Shown one piece after another: positions 5,603 through 47,122 of a stretch of 64,000 nt of DNA. The translations under genes and the position numbers were made by a program. The stretch comes from Patescibacteria group bacterium (GTDB lineage Bacteria > Patescibacteriota > Minisyncoccia > UBA6257 > JAAZHW01): assembly GCA_026415775.1 (NCBI GenBank), contig JAOAGL010000001.1, forward strand, positions 111,057-175,056, written 5' to 3'. Below the pieces are notes generated by a model. The model saw only the letters and a list, made by a program, of their open reading frames with translations, did no database searches and was not told where the DNA came from. Position 1 is the stretch's first letter, and each line of letters opens with the position of its first letter.

Positions 5603-5625
5603 AAAAAAAAGGTCCTTAAAAAAGG
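5603..5625. terminator. bidirectional hairpin terminator
   Basis: aggtcctt-aaaaa-aggacct stem-loop flanked by A-run and T-run between convergent or adjacent units. Confidence 0.4.
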
Positions 5626-6293
5626 ACCTGTTGATATGTTTTATTTGCTACTTTTGCAATTTCAGTCATTATCCGATTGGTAGCTTCAATTAAAAACTGG
5701 GGATTTTCATCAATTTCTTTTTGATTTTTTATTTCGAGTTGAAATGGTTTGCCAATTCGAATTTCTTTTTTCGCAAAGAATCCGATAACACCCTCTTTAA
5801 ATCCATAAGTGCTCGGTCCAAAACATCCGATAGGAATAATCTGACAACCACTTATTAAAGCTATTACCGCCGCCCCCCTTTTTCCTTTTTTTAAAGAGGA
5901 AAAGGGATTTCGATGGCCTTCTGGGAAAATAACCACTATATTTCCTTCGTTAATTAATTTAACAGCCTTGATTAAACTTTCGCGCGCTGCTGGCAAATAG
6001 CCAATACTATCCATTCCGAGCGTTAATATTGTGCTTATTACATGATATTTAAGAAAATTTTTCTGGAGATGCTTGGCACCAATAAAGAAAACCTTTTTCT
6101 TTTTAGGTAAAAGATACATTTTAAAGTAGGCATAAAGAGCAGCAGCTATTATTGGCGGATCATAATTATTCTGATGATTAGCAATAATTAAAAATCCTCC
6201 GTCTTTTGGTAAATTTTCCAATCCCTCAATTTTTTCTAATCTCGGTCTGATTAAGGAATAAACAAAAAAATAGAGTAGTTTATAGAATAACAT
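5616..6293 (-). CDS. plsC: 1-acyl-sn-glycerol-3-phosphate acyltransferase
   Basis: H(x4)D acyltransferase motif (IIANHQNNYDP) and FPEGHRN (FPEGTR motif). Confidence 0.75.
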   Translation of the reverse strand: MLFYKLLYFFVYSLIRPRLEKIEGLENLPKDGGFLIIANHQNNYDPPIIAAALYAYFKMYLLPKKKKVFFIGAKHLQKNFLKYHVISTILTLGMDSIGYLPAARESLIKAVKLINEGNIVVIFPEGHRNPFSSLKKGKRGAAVIALISGCQIIPIGCFGPSTYGFKEGVIGFFAKKEIRIGKPFQLEIKNQKEIDENPQFLIEATNRIMTEIAKVANKTYQQVLF

Positions 6294-6363
6294 TCTAAAC
6301 CTCCTTCTAATAAAAATTTTTAAAAACCCACTTTATTTTATTAGTTTTTTTAATTTTTTCAAT

Positions 6364-6543
6364 TGTGCCCTCGGAGGGATTCGCCTACAAGTAATCTGCC
6401 TGACGGCAGATTCTCGCAGGCCGCCCCTCGCGGTGCTCGCCTTTTCCGCTTGCGCGGAAAAACTCGCACATCGCTGCGGGCTTCGAATCCTCCACGCAAG
6501 CAAAGCAGTTTGCTTGCTCGAGGTCACTCTCGCTTTGCTCGAG
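6364..6543. repeat. GC-rich, hairpin-dense tRNA-derived element containing a degenerate copy of the tRNA-Arg 3' end
   Basis: tgccctcggagggattcg (6366-6383) matches the tRNA-Arg 3' end tgccctcgggaggattcg (6544-6561) at 16 of 18 positions. Between them is about 160 nt at roughly 60% GC with perfect hairpins: ctgcc/ggcag, ttttccgc/gcggaaaa, gcaagcaaa/tttgcttgc. It does not fold as a cloverleaf. Confidence 0.5.
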
Positions 6544-6615
6544 TGCCCTCGGGAGGATTCGAACCCCCAATTCCAGTTCCGAAGACTGGCGTGATATCCG
6601 TTTCACCACGAGGGC
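6544..6615 (-). tRNA. tRNA-Arg (anticodon TCG)
   Basis: Reverse complement GCCCTCGTGGTGAAACGGATATCACGCCAGTCTTCGGAACTGGAATTGGGGGTTCGAATCCTCCCGAGGGCA. Canonical arms, anticodon loop CTTCGGA. Confidence 0.8.
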
Positions 6616-6755
6616 TAGAAATTGCAAGTTCTTTTTTAAATTTAATACTTTTCTTTTAAAAATCAACCCCATTGCATATTAAAAGAAAAATTGAAAGAAA
6701 AAATTATGTAAGTTATAATATCCAAAATAGTCAATTTGCCCCTCCTATTCCCCTT

Positions 6756-8279
6756 ATGCGATTTACTATTAAAGATAAGCGAATAGTAATCAAGAGATTT
6801 TTTCTCACTAAAACCTCTTCTTCTTTCACCCTCATTGAACTTTTAATTGTTATCGCTATTTTAGCTGTGTTAATGTCTGTGATTGTTGTTAGCTTGAATC
6901 CCGCAGAAATGTTGAAAAGAACCAGAGATGTGAGACGCCAGGCAGATTTAAAAGCTATTAACTCAGCTTTATTAATTTATTCTGTTTCCAATCCTAATGG
7001 TTTTTTTGGTTCTTCCACCATTGTTTATATCTCCATCCCTTCTAACTATTCTAATTGTTCTGATTTGGGCTTACCGCCACTTCCCTCAGGTTGGTCTTAT
7101 CATTGTTCAAACGCTGATAATTACCGAAAAATTGATGGCAGCGGTTGGATTCCAGTTAACTTTAATTCTTTAGATGTTGGCGCTCCTATTTCTGCTTTGC
7201 CCATTGACCCCATTAATTCAACCACTTCAGGCAATTATTATACTTATGTTACCGGTGGTTCTTGGGAATTAACCGCTCTTTTTGAATCACAAAAATATCG
7301 CCAAGAAAGCGCTCCCGCTGATGGCGGAGATGTGGTGAATGGTTTTGAGGTCGGCAATAATTTAACCCTCACTCCCATTATCTTTCCTCACAACTGGATT
7401 AAAGTGCCGGGCAGTTCTCTTTACGGCACCAATGATTTCTGGGTGATGCAATTTGAAGCTAAATACTCTAAAACCGGTTCTGGCGCTGATGATGCTGGAG
7501 CTTGTTATTATACTTCTGGCTACGATACCTGGGATTGGGGCAAAACCGGAACCGACTGTCCGTCTTCTTGGTCAAACACTAATGTCGTTTCCTCTCCTTA
7601 TGGTTCGCCGATTGCCGGTGTTAGTCATAATGAAGCCAAAGCCATTTGTCAATCATTAGGCGGTCATCTGATAACTAATCAAGAATGGATGACCATTGTC
7701 AGAAATGCTGAGCAAGTGGAAGAGAATTGGTCAGGTGGTTCGGTTGGTTCTGGCTGTCTTTTTCGGGGTAATGTCGGTTCTAACGATGCCTGCGGCTATG
7801 ATGGCGCTAACCCGGAAAAGGGAATTAATCGCAATCCCAAAGCCAAATTAATTCTTTCCAATAATGAAGAAATCTGGGATATGGCGGGCAATGTTTGGGA
7901 ACATGTAATGAAAGATTTAAATGATACTCTGGTCAATAACCATCCTACCATTCTTTCCGACAACACCTGGAAGTGGTCAGAACATACAGCCAGCTGGACT
8001 AGTTATGGTGATCTTTCTTACAATGAAATCAGACCTTCCAATTCTTCTTGGAACGTCAATCAAGGAATGGGCAGGATTTATCATTATGATGGTTATTACA
8101 GCGGCCGTGTTCTGCTTCGCGGCGGGTATTGGGATGGTGGTGACAGTGCCGGGGCGTTGACGCTGTACTTGATATTGGGACGCGACGACTCAGAGCAGCC
8201 CTGTGGGGTTTCGCTGCGCCCGCTGATCCCCGTGAGATACCTCCGTATCTCACGGGGTGAAGGGGTTTTGGTAATTTAA
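6756..8279 (+). CDS. DGR target protein: N-terminal type IV pilin-like methylation motif fused to a C-terminal FGE-sulfatase/C-type-lectin-fold domain carrying the VR. The 3' end as annotated is probably frameshifted.
   Basis: SFTLIELLIVIAILAVLMSV is a prepilin-type N-terminal domain. HNEAKAICQSLGGHLITNQEWM...GNVWEHV matches the FGE/sulfatase-modifying-factor fold. The VR occupies the last codons. ATG at 6756 is the first in-frame Met (the tool's 6672 start is TTG). In the frame set by TR the protein would end ...WDATTQSSPVGFRCAR-TGA at 8226. Confidence 0.7.
   Translation: MRFTIKDKRIVIKRFFLTKTSSSFTLIELLIVIAILAVLMSVIVVSLNPAEMLKRTRDVRRQADLKAINSALLIYSVSNPNGFFGSSTIVYISIPSNYSNCSDLGLPPLPSGWSYHCSNADNYRKIDGSGWIPVNFNSLDVGAPISALPIDPINSTTSGNYYTYVTGGSWELTALFESQKYRQESAPADGGDVVNGFEVGNNLTLTPIIFPHNWIKVPGSSLYGTNDFWVMQFEAKYSKTGSGADDAGACYYTSGYDTWDWGKTGTDCPSSWSNTNVVSSPYGSPIAGVSHNEAKAICQSLGGHLITNQEWMTIVRNAEQVEENWSGGSVGSGCLFRGNVGSNDACGYDGANPEKGINRNPKAKLILSNNEEIWDMAGNVWEHVMKDLNDTLVNNHPTILSDNTWKWSEHTASWTSYGDLSYNEIRPSNSSWNVNQGMGRIYHYDGYYSGRVLLRGGYWDGGDSAGALTLYLILGRDDSEQPCGVSLRPLIPVRYLRISRGEGVLVI
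8100..8224 (+). repeat. DGR variable repeat (VR)
   Basis: Aligns to TR 8742-8865. It differs at TR positions a>t, aa>gg, a>g, t>g, a>t, a>ta (1-nt indel), a>g, a>g, a>g, aa>cc. The last 24 nt (gtggggtttcgctgcgcccgct) are identical and GC-rich, like an initiation-of-mutagenic-homing (IMH) element. Confidence 0.85.
8228..8257 (+). promoter_or_regulatory. Perfect 12-bp stem / 6-nt loop hairpin 4 nt downstream of VR (DGR homing-associated hairpin/cruciform)
   Basis: ccccgtgagata-cctccg-tatctcacgggg. The position immediately 3' of the VR/IMH mirrors the hairpin that enhances retrohoming in the Bordetella phage BPP-1 DGR. Confidence 0.6.
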
Positions 8280-8307
8280 TCTAAAATCTAAAATTTAAAA
8301 AACTTTC

Positions 8308-8667
8308 ATGTTAAACGATTTGATTGTTTTTCAAAAGACCTATGATTTTTACGTTTGGCAAAAAACTATTATTCTTCATCTAGCCAAAGTTCATAAATAT
8401 AGTTTGGGTATCCAATTAGAAAACGAAACATTAAATCTTTTAAAACAGATAGTCAAAGCAAATTTAAGCCGAACAGCCAAAAAAGAAGAAATAGAAAATT
8501 GTTTAGTATCTTTGGAAATTATTAAAGTTTTGATAAGGGTCGGCCACGAATTTAACAGAGAAGGCGGGATTAGTTTGAAAAATTATCAACTAGCATCAGA
8601 GAAACTTGCAGAAATCGGAAAATTGTTGGGTGGCTGGTTGAAAAATTTCAGCGGCCGGGCGCTTTAA
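8308..8667 (+). CDS. avd: Avd-like accessory variability determinant (four-helix-bundle protein family)
   Basis: 119 aa. LIVFQKTYDFYVWQK near the N-terminus and ISLKNYQLASEKLAEIGKLLGGWLKN at the C-terminus resemble the four-helix-bundle (23S rRNA intervening-sequence protein) family to which Avd belongs. Sits between the target and TR. Confidence 0.7.
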   Translation: MLNDLIVFQKTYDFYVWQKTIILHLAKVHKYSLGIQLENETLNLLKQIVKANLSRTAKKEEIENCLVSLEIIKVLIRVGHEFNREGGISLKNYQLASEKLAEIGKLLGGWLKNFSGRAL

Positions 8668-8741
8668 TGGCATTATAAGCCGTAGAGAATCCGGCCGCCC
8701 CGTTCTGTTTTTTACAGGACGGGCGGGGGATAAAATCAATA

Positions 8742-8865
8742 AGCGGCCGTGTTCTGCTTCGCGGCGGGAATTGGGATAATGGTGACAATGCCGGGGCGTT
8801 TACGCTGAACTTGAATTGGGACACGACGACTCAGAACAACAATGTGGGGTTTCGCTGCGCCCGCT
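8742..8865 (+). repeat. DGR template repeat (TR)
   Basis: Invariant donor copy of the VR. In the frame matching the VR it carries 8 AAY (Asn) codons (aat, aat, aat, aac, aat, aac, aac, aat) and encodes ...NNNVGFRCAR. Lies in the avd-RT intergenic region. Confidence 0.85.
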
Positions 8866-8989
8866 TCAGTGGTTATAATTTGCCAGAACTTTGCCTTTTC
8901 TTTGGAAAGGCGAAGGTGTGCTTTACAAAACCCCAGATTTTATTCCCTCCCGATATGATTTTATCATAGGGAAAATATTAGGCTTTTAC

Positions 8990-9037
8990 CCCGAGGCAGT
9001 GAAAGTAGTTAAATTATTACGAAATTTCTGCCTCGGG
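8990..9037 (+). other. 10-bp stem hairpin within the structured TR-RT spacer
   Basis: cccgaggcag...ctgcctcggg with a 28-nt loop. Additional small hairpins nearby: atgat-ttt-atcat and acgtc-ttgcgat-gacgt. DGR TR-spacer RNAs are known to be structured and needed for cDNA priming. Confidence 0.4.
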
Positions 9038-9080
9038 CCATTAAGCCCCCTTTTAATATAACGTCTTGCGATGACGTAAA

Positions 9081-9103
9081 TATAGATATAGATATAGATA
9101 TAT
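9081..9103 (+). repeat. hexanucleotide microsatellite (TATAGA/ATAGAT, about 3.5 units) abutting the RT start codon
   Basis: tatagatatagatatagatat directly precedes and overlaps the ATG at 9102. Confidence 0.6.
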
Positions 9104-10142
9104 GTTTGATAAAATCTGCTCTTTTCAAAATTTATACTCAGCTTATTTAAAAGCGCGAAAAGCCAAAAGATATCGGCCTTATATTTTAGAATTCAATTTT
9201 AATTTAGAAGAAAATTTACTGAATCTCCAAAAAGATTTATTAAACTTGACTTATCAGCCAGGACCATATCGTCAATTCACTGTTTGTGATTCTAAAAAGC
9301 GGCTCATTAAGGCGCCGGCGTTTCGTGACCGCATCATCCATCACGCTTTATGCAATGTCATTGAGCCGATTTTTGACCGAGGATTTATTTTCGACAGTTA
9401 TGCTTGCAGGAAAAATAAAGGCACCCATCGGGCAGTTAAAAGATTGGGGAATTTCATTAAATCATTAAAAACGCGTTTGGGGGAAAGTACGACCAGTGTC
9501 GAAACTTATTGCCTTAAATGCGATGTTTCCAAATATTTTGAAAATATAGACCATAATCTTTTGTTAGGTTTTATTGCAAAGAAAATTAAAGATAAGAGAG
9601 TTTTCTGGTTGATTAAACGAATTATTGAAAGCGATTCGCCGGGGATACCCATTGGCAATTTAACCAGCCAGCTTTTCGCCAATATTTATTTGAACGAATT
9701 AGACCAGTTCATAAAACATTATTTAAGAGAAAAGTATTATCTTCGCTATATGGACGATTTTTTAATTTTAGATATCAATAAAAAGCGATTGCATCAAATT
9801 AAGCGCCAAATTCAAAAATTTTTAAGAGATAAATTAAGATTAGAATTACACCCCAAAAAAGCCAATATTTTTCCGATAAATAAAGGAATTGATTTTTTGG
9901 GTTATAAAATATTTTTTAATTATCGTTTGCTGCGCAAAAATACCGTTAAACGTTTTATTAGAAGATTAAAAAAACATCAACAACAATTAAAAAATAATTT
10001 AATAAAAATTAATGATTTTAAAAAAACATTTTACTCTTGGTTGGTTTATGCTCAATTTGGAAAATCTTGGCGATTAATAAAAGATTTAAAGTTTAAAGAA
10101 AGACTTTGTTCAATACATAATGCCAGATATATATTATATTAG
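9102..10142 (+). CDS. DGR reverse transcriptase
   Basis: 346 aa. RT motifs include PGIPIGNLTSQLFANIYL (the DGR-RT-specific motif 4, as in Bordetella Brt IGNLTSQ) and the catalytic YMDD (RYMDDFLIL). Confidence 0.85.
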   Translation: MFDKICSFQNLYSAYLKARKAKRYRPYILEFNFNLEENLLNLQKDLLNLTYQPGPYRQFTVCDSKKRLIKAPAFRDRIIHHALCNVIEPIFDRGFIFDSYACRKNKGTHRAVKRLGNFIKSLKTRLGESTTSVETYCLKCDVSKYFENIDHNLLLGFIAKKIKDKRVFWLIKRIIESDSPGIPIGNLTSQLFANIYLNELDQFIKHYLREKYYLRYMDDFLILDINKKRLHQIKRQIQKFLRDKLRLELHPKKANIFPINKGIDFLGYKIFFNYRLLRKNTVKRFIRRLKKHQQQLKNNLIKINDFKKTFYSWLVYAQFGKSWRLIKDLKFKERLCSIHNARYILY

Positions 10143-10221
10143 ATTTTGTTAAACTTCAATCTCAGGGCATTTTTAATCATCGGCATTGTCAATTTAATGG
10201 ATTTAAGATAAGATAAGAAAG

Positions 10222-11712
10222 ATGAAAATTCCCCAAGAAATTTTAGCCATTATTAAAAAGTTTGAAGAAAGCCCTCAAAAATTTGAGGTTTATTTGGTTG
10301 GTGGCTGTGTGAGGGATTTGTTGCTTTCGCGCGAGCCAAAAGATTGGGATTTAACAACGAATGCCACACCTTCTGAGATCCAAAAATTATTTCCAAAAAG
10401 TTTTTATGAAAATCAATTTGGCACGGTTTCAGTGATTACTGATTCGGAAAAAGAAAGTTTAAAAATTGTTGAGATTACTCCCTTTCGTTTGGAAGGAAAA
10501 TATTCTGATAAACGCCATCCTGATGAAATTAAATTTGCTAAAACTTTGAAGGAGGATTTAGCGCGCCGCGATTTTACAATTAATGCAATGGCGCTTCAGG
10601 TTAATACTTCGACATTAAAAACAAAATTGATTGATTATTTTGGCGGCGAGAAGGATTTAAAAGATAAAATTATTCGAGCCGTAGGCGATCCAGAAAAAAG
10701 ATTTAATGAGGATGCTTTAAGGTTAATGAGGGCAGTGCGTTGCGCTGTTGAGTTAGATTTTGAAATTGAAGAAAAAACTCAAAGAGCGATTGTGGAATTA
10801 GCCAATAATTTAGCTTATATTTCTCGCGAAAGAATTCGTGATGAATTAATAAAGATTTTAATGTGCGAAAATGCAGCCAAAGGGATTCAATTGCTTTATG
10901 AATTAAAATTATTGCCTTATGTAATAAAGGAATTAGAAGAAGGAGTTAATAGTATCGGAGTAACAAAAAAACTAAAAGAGCATATTAAATACGAAAAATT
11001 AACGACCTTTGAACATTTATTAAAGACTTTAGATTATGCCGCAAAAAATAATTTTAATTTAGAGACTCGTTTAGCAGCTTTGCTCCATGATATTGCCAAA
11101 CCTCGGACTAAAGAAGGAGAAGGATTAGAAGCGACTTTTAAAGGACACGAACGATTGGGGGCAAAAATGGTAAAAGAAATTTTAATGCGATTGCATTTTT
11201 CAAATAAAGTTATTGATAAAGTAGTAAAATTAGTACGTTGGCATTTCTTCTTTTATGATGTAGACAAAGTAACGCCAGCTGGTGTAAGGCGATTGATTAG
11301 AAATGTTGGCGCAGAAAATATTGATGATTTATTAAAATTACGCGAAGCTGATCGGAGCGGATCGGGATTGCCAAAAATTTCTTCATATCGGCTCAGGCAT
11401 TTGCGTTATATGATTGAAAAAGTAAAAAAAGACCCGATTGAACCAAAAATGTTAGAAGTAAAAGGTAATGATGTAATGGAAATTTTAAATATTCCGCCAT
11501 CACCCAAAGTTGGTTGGGTTTTAAATATTCTTTTAGAAGAAGTTTTGGAAGATCCTCAAAAAAATAAAAGAGATTATTTATTAAAACGGATAGAAGAATT
11601 AAAAGAAAAAGATGAAGGGGAATTACAAAAAATGGCTGAAGAGGCAAAACGGCGGATTGAAGCAATAGAAGAAGATGTTGACCAGCAAATAAGAAAAAAA
11701 TACAATGTTTAA
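10222..11712 (+). CDS. cca: CCA-adding enzyme (tRNA nucleotidyltransferase) with HD domain
   Basis: Pol-beta head motif GGCVRDLLL...D.D and HD domain LAALLHDIAKP. C-terminal K/E-rich extension. Confidence 0.8.
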   Translation: MKIPQEILAIIKKFEESPQKFEVYLVGGCVRDLLLSREPKDWDLTTNATPSEIQKLFPKSFYENQFGTVSVITDSEKESLKIVEITPFRLEGKYSDKRHPDEIKFAKTLKEDLARRDFTINAMALQVNTSTLKTKLIDYFGGEKDLKDKIIRAVGDPEKRFNEDALRLMRAVRCAVELDFEIEEKTQRAIVELANNLAYISRERIRDELIKILMCENAAKGIQLLYELKLLPYVIKELEEGVNSIGVTKKLKEHIKYEKLTTFEHLLKTLDYAAKNNFNLETRLAALLHDIAKPRTKEGEGLEATFKGHERLGAKMVKEILMRLHFSNKVIDKVVKLVRWHFFFYDVDKVTPAGVRRLIRNVGAENIDDLLKLREADRSGSGLPKISSYRLRHLRYMIEKVKKDPIEPKMLEVKGNDVMEILNIPPSPKVGWVLNILLEEVLEDPQKNKRDYLLKRIEELKEKDEGELQKMAEEAKRRIEAIEEDVDQQIRKKYNV

Positions 11713-28782: not shown

Positions 28783-29175
28783 CTTCAATAAGTAGGCAAC
28801 TGCTGTTAATGCTTTGAGATTTTTTCAATAATAAGCATTAACAGAGGAAAGTCCGAACACCCTGCTGTTTTCTTTTGAAGACAGTAGAAGCAGGAAGTTG
28901 CTAACAGCAACCGGTCACATTAACTGTGATTAGGGAAAGTGCCACAGAAACTATACCGGCCGTCTTTTAAGGCGACCAAGGGTGAAAAGAGTGGAGGTAA
29001 GAGCTCCCAACTCTAATTGGTGACAATTAGAGGTGGCAAACCCTTCCTGGTGCAAGATCAAGTTGTCGCGCAAGCGACAGGTAGATCGCTCTGAACTTGG
29101 TAGCAATACCAAGTCAAGATAAATAGTTGCCGCCCATTTTTAATGGGTACAGAATTCGGCTTATTCTTATTGAAG
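28783..29175 (+). ncRNA. rnpB: RNase P RNA (bacterial type A)
   Basis: P1 pairing cttcaataag/cttattgaag. Conserved AGAGGAAAGTCCGAACAC (P4), AGGGTGAAAAGAGTGGAGGTAAGAGCTCCC, and 3' ACAGAATTCGGCTTA. Confidence 0.85.
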
Positions 29176-29183
29176 AAACAAGA

Positions 29184-46738: not shown

Positions 46739-47085
46739 GGGGATGATCGGCCTCGAGACGGAAAAGCATTTTCGAGTCAGGCCGAGGAGCCGTTACCTCG
46801 TAAATCAACGGGAAACAAAAAACTGCCAATTTTAGCAGAAATTTGGCTTTTGCTTTAGCATAAGCCCATCCAATTAGCTGATGCTCGATAGGCTAAAAGG
46901 GTGTCAAATTATCGAGCTTGGCTCTTTCTAGGCGTCTTTGGCTAGAAGAGCAACCTAACTCCAAAGACAGGGACTAATAATTTTGCCGATTTTAGATATT
47001 AGTCCTTAAGAAAAATCGGCTGATTGTCTGGAAAGCTCGAAAATCAACTTTTTCGTCCACGCGGGTTCGATTCCCGCCATCTCCA
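46739..47085 (+). ncRNA. ssrA: tmRNA (SsrA)
   Basis: 5' GGGGATG pairs with 3' CATCTCC. T-arm GCGGGTTCGATTCCCGC. Internal tag reading frame GCC AAT TTT AGC AGA AAT TTG GCT TTT GCT TTA GCA TAA gives ANFSRNLAFALA. Confidence 0.85.
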
Positions 47086-47122
47086 CTAAATTATCCGGTC
47101 GGTCGATTTTTAAAATTCTAAG

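Follow-up and report, generated by a model that had tools for sequence, protein, structure and literature searches.

In diversity-generating retroelements (DGRs), a complex of reverse transcriptase (RT) and Avd copies the RNA of a template repeat (TR) with misincorporation opposite adenines, and the cDNA then replaces a variable repeat (VR) at the 3′ end of a target gene. DGRs with FGE-sulfatase/C-type lectin (CLec) targets are reportedly known, from the work of Paul et al. (2017), in the Candidate Phyla Radiation (CPR)/Patescibacteria and in DPANN. Here we analyse a complete DGR (target, bAvd, TR and RT) of a Patescibacteria genome, located in a 64-kb stretch of contig JAOAGL010000001.1 that is referred to below as the window. 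The VR of this element carries one base more than its TR, by which the end of the target protein is thrown out of frame, and we consider it probable that this VR is a genuine frameshift allele made by the DGR itself, the insertion or deletion (indel) stemming from adenine-mutagenic reverse transcription.

TR/VR length differences have been described before. Wu et al. (2018, Nucleic Acids Res 46:11; PMC5758913) found them in 25 of 372 DGRs, 11 of which were frameshifting; 74% of the differences adjoined AAC and were ascribed to template slippage, and non-adenine substitutions, present in 23% of the DGRs, were frequent in those of CPR, for which a lower RT fidelity was noted. The cDNA made in vitro by bRT-Avd contained single-base insertions or deletions at ~0.1% (Handa et al., 2018; PMC6182149). 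In a reconstituted BPP-1 DGR, a VR reporter that had lost 18 nt was restored with TR as the source, and homing can thus repair length defects (PMC12875486). Among DGR targets, the pilin type has been mentioned as rare (PMC11661182).

The locus in the window resembles the cases of Wu et al. (2018) in its VR/TR length difference that is not a multiple of three (non-3n) and lies at an AAY codon, in the accompanying non-adenine substitution and in its CPR host; likewise, the ~5 of 99 related VRs with such indels (see below) match their 11 of 372. It differs from them in that six natural alleles of one cassette could be compared (three canonical ones, two with a net frameshift and one with a compensated pair), in that the codon affected in the window is AAT and not an AAC repeat, and in that both +1 events have the form AAY → ATAY. 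With the DGR of Bordetella phage BPP-1 it shares a 3′ VR in a CLec-type target, bAvd, TR, RT, adenine-specific differences, a GC-rich block of VR/TR identity and a hairpin right downstream of VR only. Unlike BPP-1, whose target Mtd belongs to the phage tail fibre and whose indels are reported to be rare or negligible, it has a pilin-like target with an N-methylation motif and an FGE-sulfatase-type domain, a hairpin stem of 13 bp, a Patescibacteria chromosome as its host and indels in three of six alleles. From the FGE-sulfatase/CLec DGRs of CPR/Patescibacteria and DPANN there is no essential difference: the closest relatives share the TR design and the ...GFRCAR-stop ending, and the locus is one further member, with a frameshifted VR allele in a deposited assembly.

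The extra base and the end of the target protein

VR (8100–8224) and TR (8742–8865) are the sole copies of the repeat in the window, in which a search for a second VR or target found none, and their GC content is 64% as against 34% for the window. VR exceeds TR by one base (125 versus 124 nt), and the start-to-start spacing of the two repeats (direct-repeat families D11 and D20) changes from 642 to 641 across position 8173. The best single-base removal from VR was that of T8173, which left 11 mismatches; 12 remained upon removal of A8172 or A8174. This T splits the two adenines of the TR codon AAT (TR 8815–8817) and converts AAT to ATAT. TR locally reads 'cttgAATtggg' and VR 'cttgATATtggg', the VR string spanning the extra T being ...TTGATATTGGG...; the states that flank it in the assembled VR include T8127, GG8136–7, G8146, G8159, T8166 and G8182.

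Ten of the 11 VR/TR substitutions sit at TR adenines, the exception being TR T8801 → VR G8159. As all five of the differences located 3′ of the insertion fall at TR adenines, there appears to have been no decay after the indel. The original prediction, made from the letters of the stretch, had proposed both one extra base in VR and one T-to-G substitution away from adenine. The former was confirmed by the mismatch count and the shift in spacing, and the latter by the alignment.

The open reading frame (ORF) at 6672–8279 encodes 535 amino acids (aa) as assembled and ends ...YLILGRDDSEQPCGVSLRPLIPVRYLRISRGEGVLVI. Its last 35 residues (codons 8172–8276) are out of frame and run through the hairpin to 8279. 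Removal of base 8173 yields a 517-aa protein ending ...LYLNWDATTQSSPVGFRCAR with TGA at 8224–8226, and the corrected VR translates as ...YLNWDATTQSSPVGFRCAR, with the TGA coming right where TR/VR homology stops (last base 8224). In the target frame TR reads SGRVLLRGGNWDNGDNAGAFTLNLNWDTTTQNNNVGFRCAR. The native residues displaced by the tail number 17, (N/Y)WDATTQSSPVGFRCAR, VGFRCAR included, and the out-of-frame peptide, ...CGVSLRPLIPVRY..., results from off-frame translation of the conserved GTGGGGTTTCGCTGCGCCCGC block and of the hairpin. Re-translation therefore upheld three further statements of the same prediction, namely that TR encodes ...NNNVGFRCAR in this frame, that VR without the extra base runs into TGA 8224–8226 where TR/VR homology ends, and that the assembled ORF reads on in the wrong frame for ~35 residues via the hairpin to 8279.

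Sister alleles and related DGRs

Exact-protein look-ups of RT and Avd retrieved sister cassettes at the loci L001 (JGI 3300038743), L002 (SRR16606022), L003 (SRR31392928), L004 (SRR25293641), L005 (SRR25293831) and L166 (SRR26992862). L004 and L005 have an identical VR and were counted as one allele, giving six alleles in all with that of the window. Outside VR the sister cassettes are 99.6–100% identical to the window. The target gene minus VR is 99.6–99.9% identical, with just 2–6 sites differing from the sisters in 1,428 nt; avd, TR and RT are 99–100% identical among the six assemblies, and the RT protein of the window recurs unchanged in L001 and L002. The VRs of the six assemblies are 84–90% identical and differ at TR-adenine positions.

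In three alleles (L001, L002 and L166) VR has 124 nt, carries no indel and ends at GFRCAR-stop. The VR of L003 has 123 nt, one base having been lost from an AAC codon, and its tail is shifted to the other frame (528 aa). That of L004/L005 again has 124 nt, with a −1 in AAT and a +1 (AAC → ATAC) nine bases later; it ends at GFRCAR-stop, and the three intervening codons are recoded. In these loci (L004 1755–1878, L005 1663–1786) the compensated −1/+1 VR changes DNGDN to GMVTY. The window allele, with 125 nt, a +1 in AAT and the shifted 535-aa product, completes the series. Since two sequencing runs yielded the double-indel allele in independent assemblies, indel-bearing VR molecules appear, on the sequences compared, to be real in this lineage.

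The extra T of the window is missing from the VRs of all six sister loci and from every TR. A deletion in TR instead of an insertion in VR was rejected, as all four complete TRs are 124 nt long and so are the three indel-free VRs. The native stop of the window (8224–8226) is also used in L001, L002, L004, L005 and L166, in which 82–89 nt separate the gene end from avd, the 89 nt of L002 being due to one additional 7-nt spacer unit. The AT-rich spacer between hairpin and avd (8262–8300) consists of tandem AATCTAA units, of which L002 (1589–1617) has one more than the window.

Conservation of the extended C-terminus, the observation that the original prediction had set against its own reading, was not seen: four of the six alleles end GFRCAR-stop, and the only other extension, that of L003, differs in frame and sequence. 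The GFRCAR frame is thus, by comparison of the alleles, the native frame, because these four alleles and the closest other DGRs end that way. Judged likewise from the alignments, the two shifted tails are not functional extensions, because those of the window and of L003 differ from each other; the tail of the window allele is common to no sister allele. The protein made from the window allele is most likely non-functional.

Differences between the TRs themselves tell of recent homing. In L001, L002 and L003, TR is as long as in the window and differs at one or two non-adenine sites, which are tracked by their own VRs. In the window, TR T8789 (AAT) and VR T8147 correspond to C in both repeats elsewhere (AAC), and L002 has ...AAT AAC in TR (versus AAC AAC elsewhere) together with ...AGT AAC in VR. 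A TR polymorphism mirrored in the cognate VR directly shows that sequence passed from TR to VR once the lineages had separated, and each lineage has homed recently, as its VR follows its own TR at these non-adenine sites. At least one non-adenine substitution is present in five of the six alleles, L003 and in-frame ones included. At the codon of position 8159, only L003 also alters TTT (T-to-A, ATT), and the other sisters keep TTT.

More distant relatives were gathered by RT-protein scans of genome and metagenome contigs. Their RTs are 39–64% identical and come mostly from metagenome-assembled genomes (MAGs) of Patescibacteria and DPANN, including Saccharibacteria and Wolfebacteria. A-biased TR/VR pairs were found in 110 of the 166 sequences searched (160 related loci, the five sister loci and the window). 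The closest other DGRs (L089–L096, L099 and L140) end [IVF]GFRC[AVS]R-stop at 0–11 nt from the end of VR/TR homology, and G[FLWYIV]R lies within the last 14 residues of 57 of 104 related VR-bearing ORFs. Internal non-3n indels are carried by ~5 of 99 distinct VRs of other related DGRs (~5%), where gaps in the 3′ flank holding the initiation of mutagenic homing sequences (IMH/IMH*) and gaps in multiples of three were not counted as frameshifts. Exact-pattern scans of genome and metagenome contigs with the VR 3′ junction (GCGCCCGCTGATCCCCGTGAGATA) gave no match.

Among these relatives, L088 (2937–3055; MAG contig CAYVGF010000001.1, a GTDB representative whose RT is 60% identical) combines a homologous TR with a VR that lacks two bases (−2) at an AAT codon, and its out-of-frame tail, ...ARQCWVSLRPVVVEI, replaces GFRCAR. 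The VR of L038 carries a +1 between AAC codons. Both VRs of L126 (3471–3592 and 7186–7307) look dead, one having TAA for the AAA of TR and the other a +1 that leads straight to a TGA.

Origin of the extra base

The position of the indels is an argument for an origin in the DGR itself. All four indel events of the lineage lie at AA doublets of AAY codons. The doublets make up 16 of the 124 TR positions, all eight of them being AAY codons in the target frame, and the probability that four random placements would all fall in AA doublets is ~3e-4. Both +1 events, that of the window and that of L004/L005, share the form AAY → ATAY. Furthermore, with the window left out, two of the five alleles of this lineage carry non-3n indels, compared with ~5 of 99 related VRs (Fisher p = 0.035).

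The assembly, by comparison, shows no general tendency to indels. The ORFs with 100 aa or more span 89% of the window, and most of the stretches left between them contain RNase P RNA, tmRNA, tRNAs or TR. In the alignments to L001 (5.2 kb) and L002 (3.7 kb), the extra base of VR is the sole frame-breaking indel in a native coding frame. Otherwise, the non-3n differences from L001 and L002 comprise an 8-nt gap right where cca ends and the 7-nt spacer unit, which overlaps only the out-of-frame tail. A generally indel-prone assembly was rejected on account of this ORF coverage and of the lack of any other frame-breaking coding indel. Given the indels at AA doublets, the independent assemblies and the absence of general indel damage, an origin in reverse transcription is the most economical one.

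In this process, RT would make a non-canonical product in which one base is added within the AA doublet of the AAT codon, the added base arising by polymerase slippage or by re-copying at a mis-paired adenine. Homing would then carry the indel-bearing cDNA into VR, where the insertion would shift the last 17 native codons, including the invariant VGFRCAR scaffold strand, together with the native TGA. The ORF would continue for 35 meaningless codons through the target-recognition hairpin, and the product would not function until the next retrohoming event overwrote VR and restored the frame. Such restoration by further homing is to be expected, since none of TR, avd, RT, the 3′ identity block and the hairpin is damaged and all of them match those of active sisters. 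We infer that RT made the indel, and in the same manner the loss of function and its reversibility.

Several points weigh against this origin. The extra T is known from the assembly alone, and exact-protein look-ups of the target, cca and the acyltransferase found no second assembly of the window's strain. The string 'A+TAT' equals the union of AAT and TAT, both of which are seen at this codon in sister loci, and a consensus that merges haplotypes could give it. Were the protein under selection, one would not expect the assembled, and presumably dominant, haplotype to be a frameshifted allele. Lastly, indels were called negligible for BPP-1 in E. coli (2026 preprint, 10.64898/2026.07.21.739853).

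An artefact of assembly or consensus, the first of the causes considered in the original prediction, is accordingly the chief alternative, though we hold it to be clearly the less probable one. No real frameshifted molecule would then exist; either two alleles would have been merged at the AAT codon (AAT + TAT → ATAT), the 124-nt haplotypes being, for example, TTGAATTGG and TTGTATTGG, or halves of haplotypes would have been joined, as in a chimera that kept only the +1 half of a compensated L004-like haplotype. A compensated −1/+1 haplotype does exist in the lineage (L004 and L005), and TAT at the AAT codon occurs in L002 and L003, so that ATAT could be read as A-- plus TAT. The VRs are hypervariable between samples, within-sample heterogeneity is likely, and assemblers struggle in this region, short Logan contigs breaking in or near TR/VR (those of L004 and L005 end inside TR). 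However, the double-indel allele of L004 and L005 was assembled separately from two runs, and contigs built from exact read k-mers should not be able to invent an indel. The indels of L003, L088 and L038 were obtained with other pipelines and likewise sit at AAY codons, the remainder of the window is free of frameshift-type damage, and a random sequencing error is not expected to hit an AA doublet. Overall, the comparative sequence data favour a genuine, potentially reversible DGR-made allele, in line with the inactivating or transient frameshift that the original prediction had also considered, over a generic sequencing error.

It is improbable that the base was gained after homing in a decaying target, through an ordinary spontaneous replication error or a pseudogenisation in which the DGR had no part. 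The T-to-G change at 8159 does accompany the indel, and frameshifts do inactivate genes in reduced genomes. Yet the insertion lies outside any homopolymer and within an AA doublet, like the three other indels of the lineage; the T-to-G change is the only non-adenine substitution in 125 nt, and changes of this kind occur in five of the six alleles and are frequent in CPR DGRs (PMC5758913). Nor is decay apparent from the 1,428 nt of non-VR target with their 2–6 differing sites, or from RT, avd, TR and the hairpin, which show no damage and do not differ from those at the active sister loci.

That the extended frame is functional, as an alternative C-terminus or through programmed ribosomal frameshifting, is very improbable despite the annotation of the 535-aa product as an ordinary CDS by NCBI, as its tail is unique to the window allele, the extension of L003 is unrelated and in the other frame, four alleles stop at GFRCAR, and the tail is merely the off-frame GTGGGGTTTCGCTGCGCCCGC block plus hairpin, of which L088 gives an analogous 'CWVSLRP' by its −2. 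With regard to programmed frameshifting, the shifted tail is conserved in no sister allele and the indel is absent from the five other assemblies; a slippery site or stimulatory element was not searched for.

A stronger proposition, in which the RT of this lineage is unusually prone to indels and single-base events at AA doublets are a frequent outcome of retrohoming and not a rare error, could draw on the four such events in three of the six alleles but seems rather doubtful to us.

Cassette, target annotation and significance

The element is intact and currently active (Table 1). It shows RT motifs, an adenine-biased TR/VR pair, a 3′ VR with AAY codons in the target, Avd, recognition-type elements and ongoing diversification. 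The RT translation (9102–10142) contains IGNLTSQ and YMDD, in keeping with the [I/L]GxxxSQ and YxDD motifs of the DGR clade. The hairpin starts 4 nt 3′ of VR, and TR has no counterpart of it downstream. Its DNA fold has a centroid of −15.3 kcal/mol, with a minimum free energy of −17.4 for the 86-nt stretch (z = −4.3; none of 200 shuffles was equally stable), and the stretch 8225–8307, comprising hairpin and spacer, is 100% conserved in L001, L003, L004, L005 and L166. A 23-nt GC-rich IMH-like block, TGTGGGGTTTCGCTGCGCCCGCT, is the same in VR and TR. By their sequence and position, this block and the hairpin are putative target-recognition elements of homing.

Table 1. Positions of the DGR features within the window.
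Feature	Position	Strand	Description	Basis
DGR target gene as assembled	6672..8279	+	535 aa	ORF list, Pfam
VR	8100..8224	+	125 nt, 3′ end of target gene	Alignment to TR
Extra base T in VR	8173..8173	+		Gap placement giving fewest mismatches
Non-adenine substitution in VR	8159..8159	+	TTT Phe → TTG Leu	TR T8801 → VR G
Out-of-frame tail	8172..8279	+	35 codons (ILGRDD...GVLVI) and stop TAA 8277–8279	Translation
Native-frame stop TGA	8224..8226	+	Right at end of TR/VR homology	Translation
Hairpin/cruciform	8228..8257	+	GC-rich, 13-bp stem, 4-nt loop CTCC	DNA fold
avd accessory gene	8308..8667	+	119 aa	Pfam bAvd PF22296, E = 7.5e-18, 65.4 bits (cut-off 40)
TR	8742..8865	+	124 nt, 25 adenines, 8 AA doublets	
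DGR reverse transcriptase	9102..10142	+	346 aa, intact	Pfam RVT_1, E = 9.2e-22

The target protein is identical to NCBI MCX8015812.1 (cluster member P0005), from a Patescibacteria MAG with a contig of 492,117 bp, and is annotated there as 'type II secretion system GspH family protein'. Pfam N_methyl matched aa 49–71 (nt 6816–6884, SSSFTLIELLIVIAILAVL) with 25.7 bits (cut-off 21.2), and this prepilin N-methylation motif suggests a type IV pilin/pseudopilin-like protein. FGE-sulfatase (PF03781) matched aa 285–424 (nt 7524–7943) with 33.2 bits (cut-off 23.3), the PF03781 scores overall lying at 33–38 bits. Removal of base 8173 raised the score from 33.2 to 36.8 bits, a gain (+3.6) that is weak on its own. 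In the sister protein P0002, the end of the FGE-sulfatase profile (255/255) aligns to the last residue, and the window allele has the GFR[CAL]xx ending of CLec/FGE-sulfatase proteins only once base 8173 is removed. A phmmer search of the corrected C-terminal domain against PDB gave no match.

The 90% cluster of the target protein (P0001–P0006) is represented by the frameshifted L003 allele (P0003, 528 aa). MCX8015812.1 (535 aa) is not annotated as a DGR target, and its 35-residue C-terminus is artefactual. The two most visible sequences of this protein, P0003 and MCX8015812.1, thus both have artefactual C-termini.

The surroundings of the cassette differ from it in their degree of conservation. 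The cassette (6543–10221; tRNA-Arg, target, avd, TR and RT) is 99.6–100% identical among genomes (L001, L002 and L003) with far more diverged flanks: the acyltransferase gene (5616–6293) is 97% identical in L001 and 70.7% in L003, and cca (10222–11712) is 79–84% identical, the drop on the right-hand side occurring after the RT stop and before cca begins. This pattern suggests that diverged Patescibacteria recently exchanged the cassette horizontally or that it went through a recombination sweep among them. A GC-rich segment of ~180 nt (6363–6542) lies between the acyltransferase gene and tRNA-Arg(tcg) (6543–6615, minus strand). It opens with a 19-nt near-copy (6366–6384) of the tRNA 3′ end (6545–6563), resembling an att-site duplication, is present in L004 and L005 and absent from L001 and L003, and had no match in Rfam. 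Ordinary RNA genes elsewhere in the window comprise RNase P RNA (class A) and tmRNA, at 28784–29178 and 46739–47088, and six tRNAs.

The observation is real but ordinary, frameshifted VRs having already been reported for DGRs (PMC5758913). What is added here is the natural series of six alleles, the recurrent AAY → ATAY form of the +1 events and a correction to public annotation. The last matters for practical work, as searches or structure predictions starting from P0003 or MCX8015812.1 miss the ligand-binding end of the domain. Within one DGR, whose target is a pilin-like protein of an episymbiotic lineage, the series offers a natural and compact illustration of VRs that are frameshifted and of VRs in which the frame is restored; it lends support to the idea of slippage at AAY put forward by Wu et al. 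(2018) and leaves the current understanding of DGRs unchanged. Should RT-made indels nevertheless prove frequent in this lineage, they would provide reversible OFF alleles of a pilin-like adhesin, resembling phase variation, and compensated −1/+1 alleles would recode non-adenine positions and so widen diversity beyond that reached by adenine mutagenesis.

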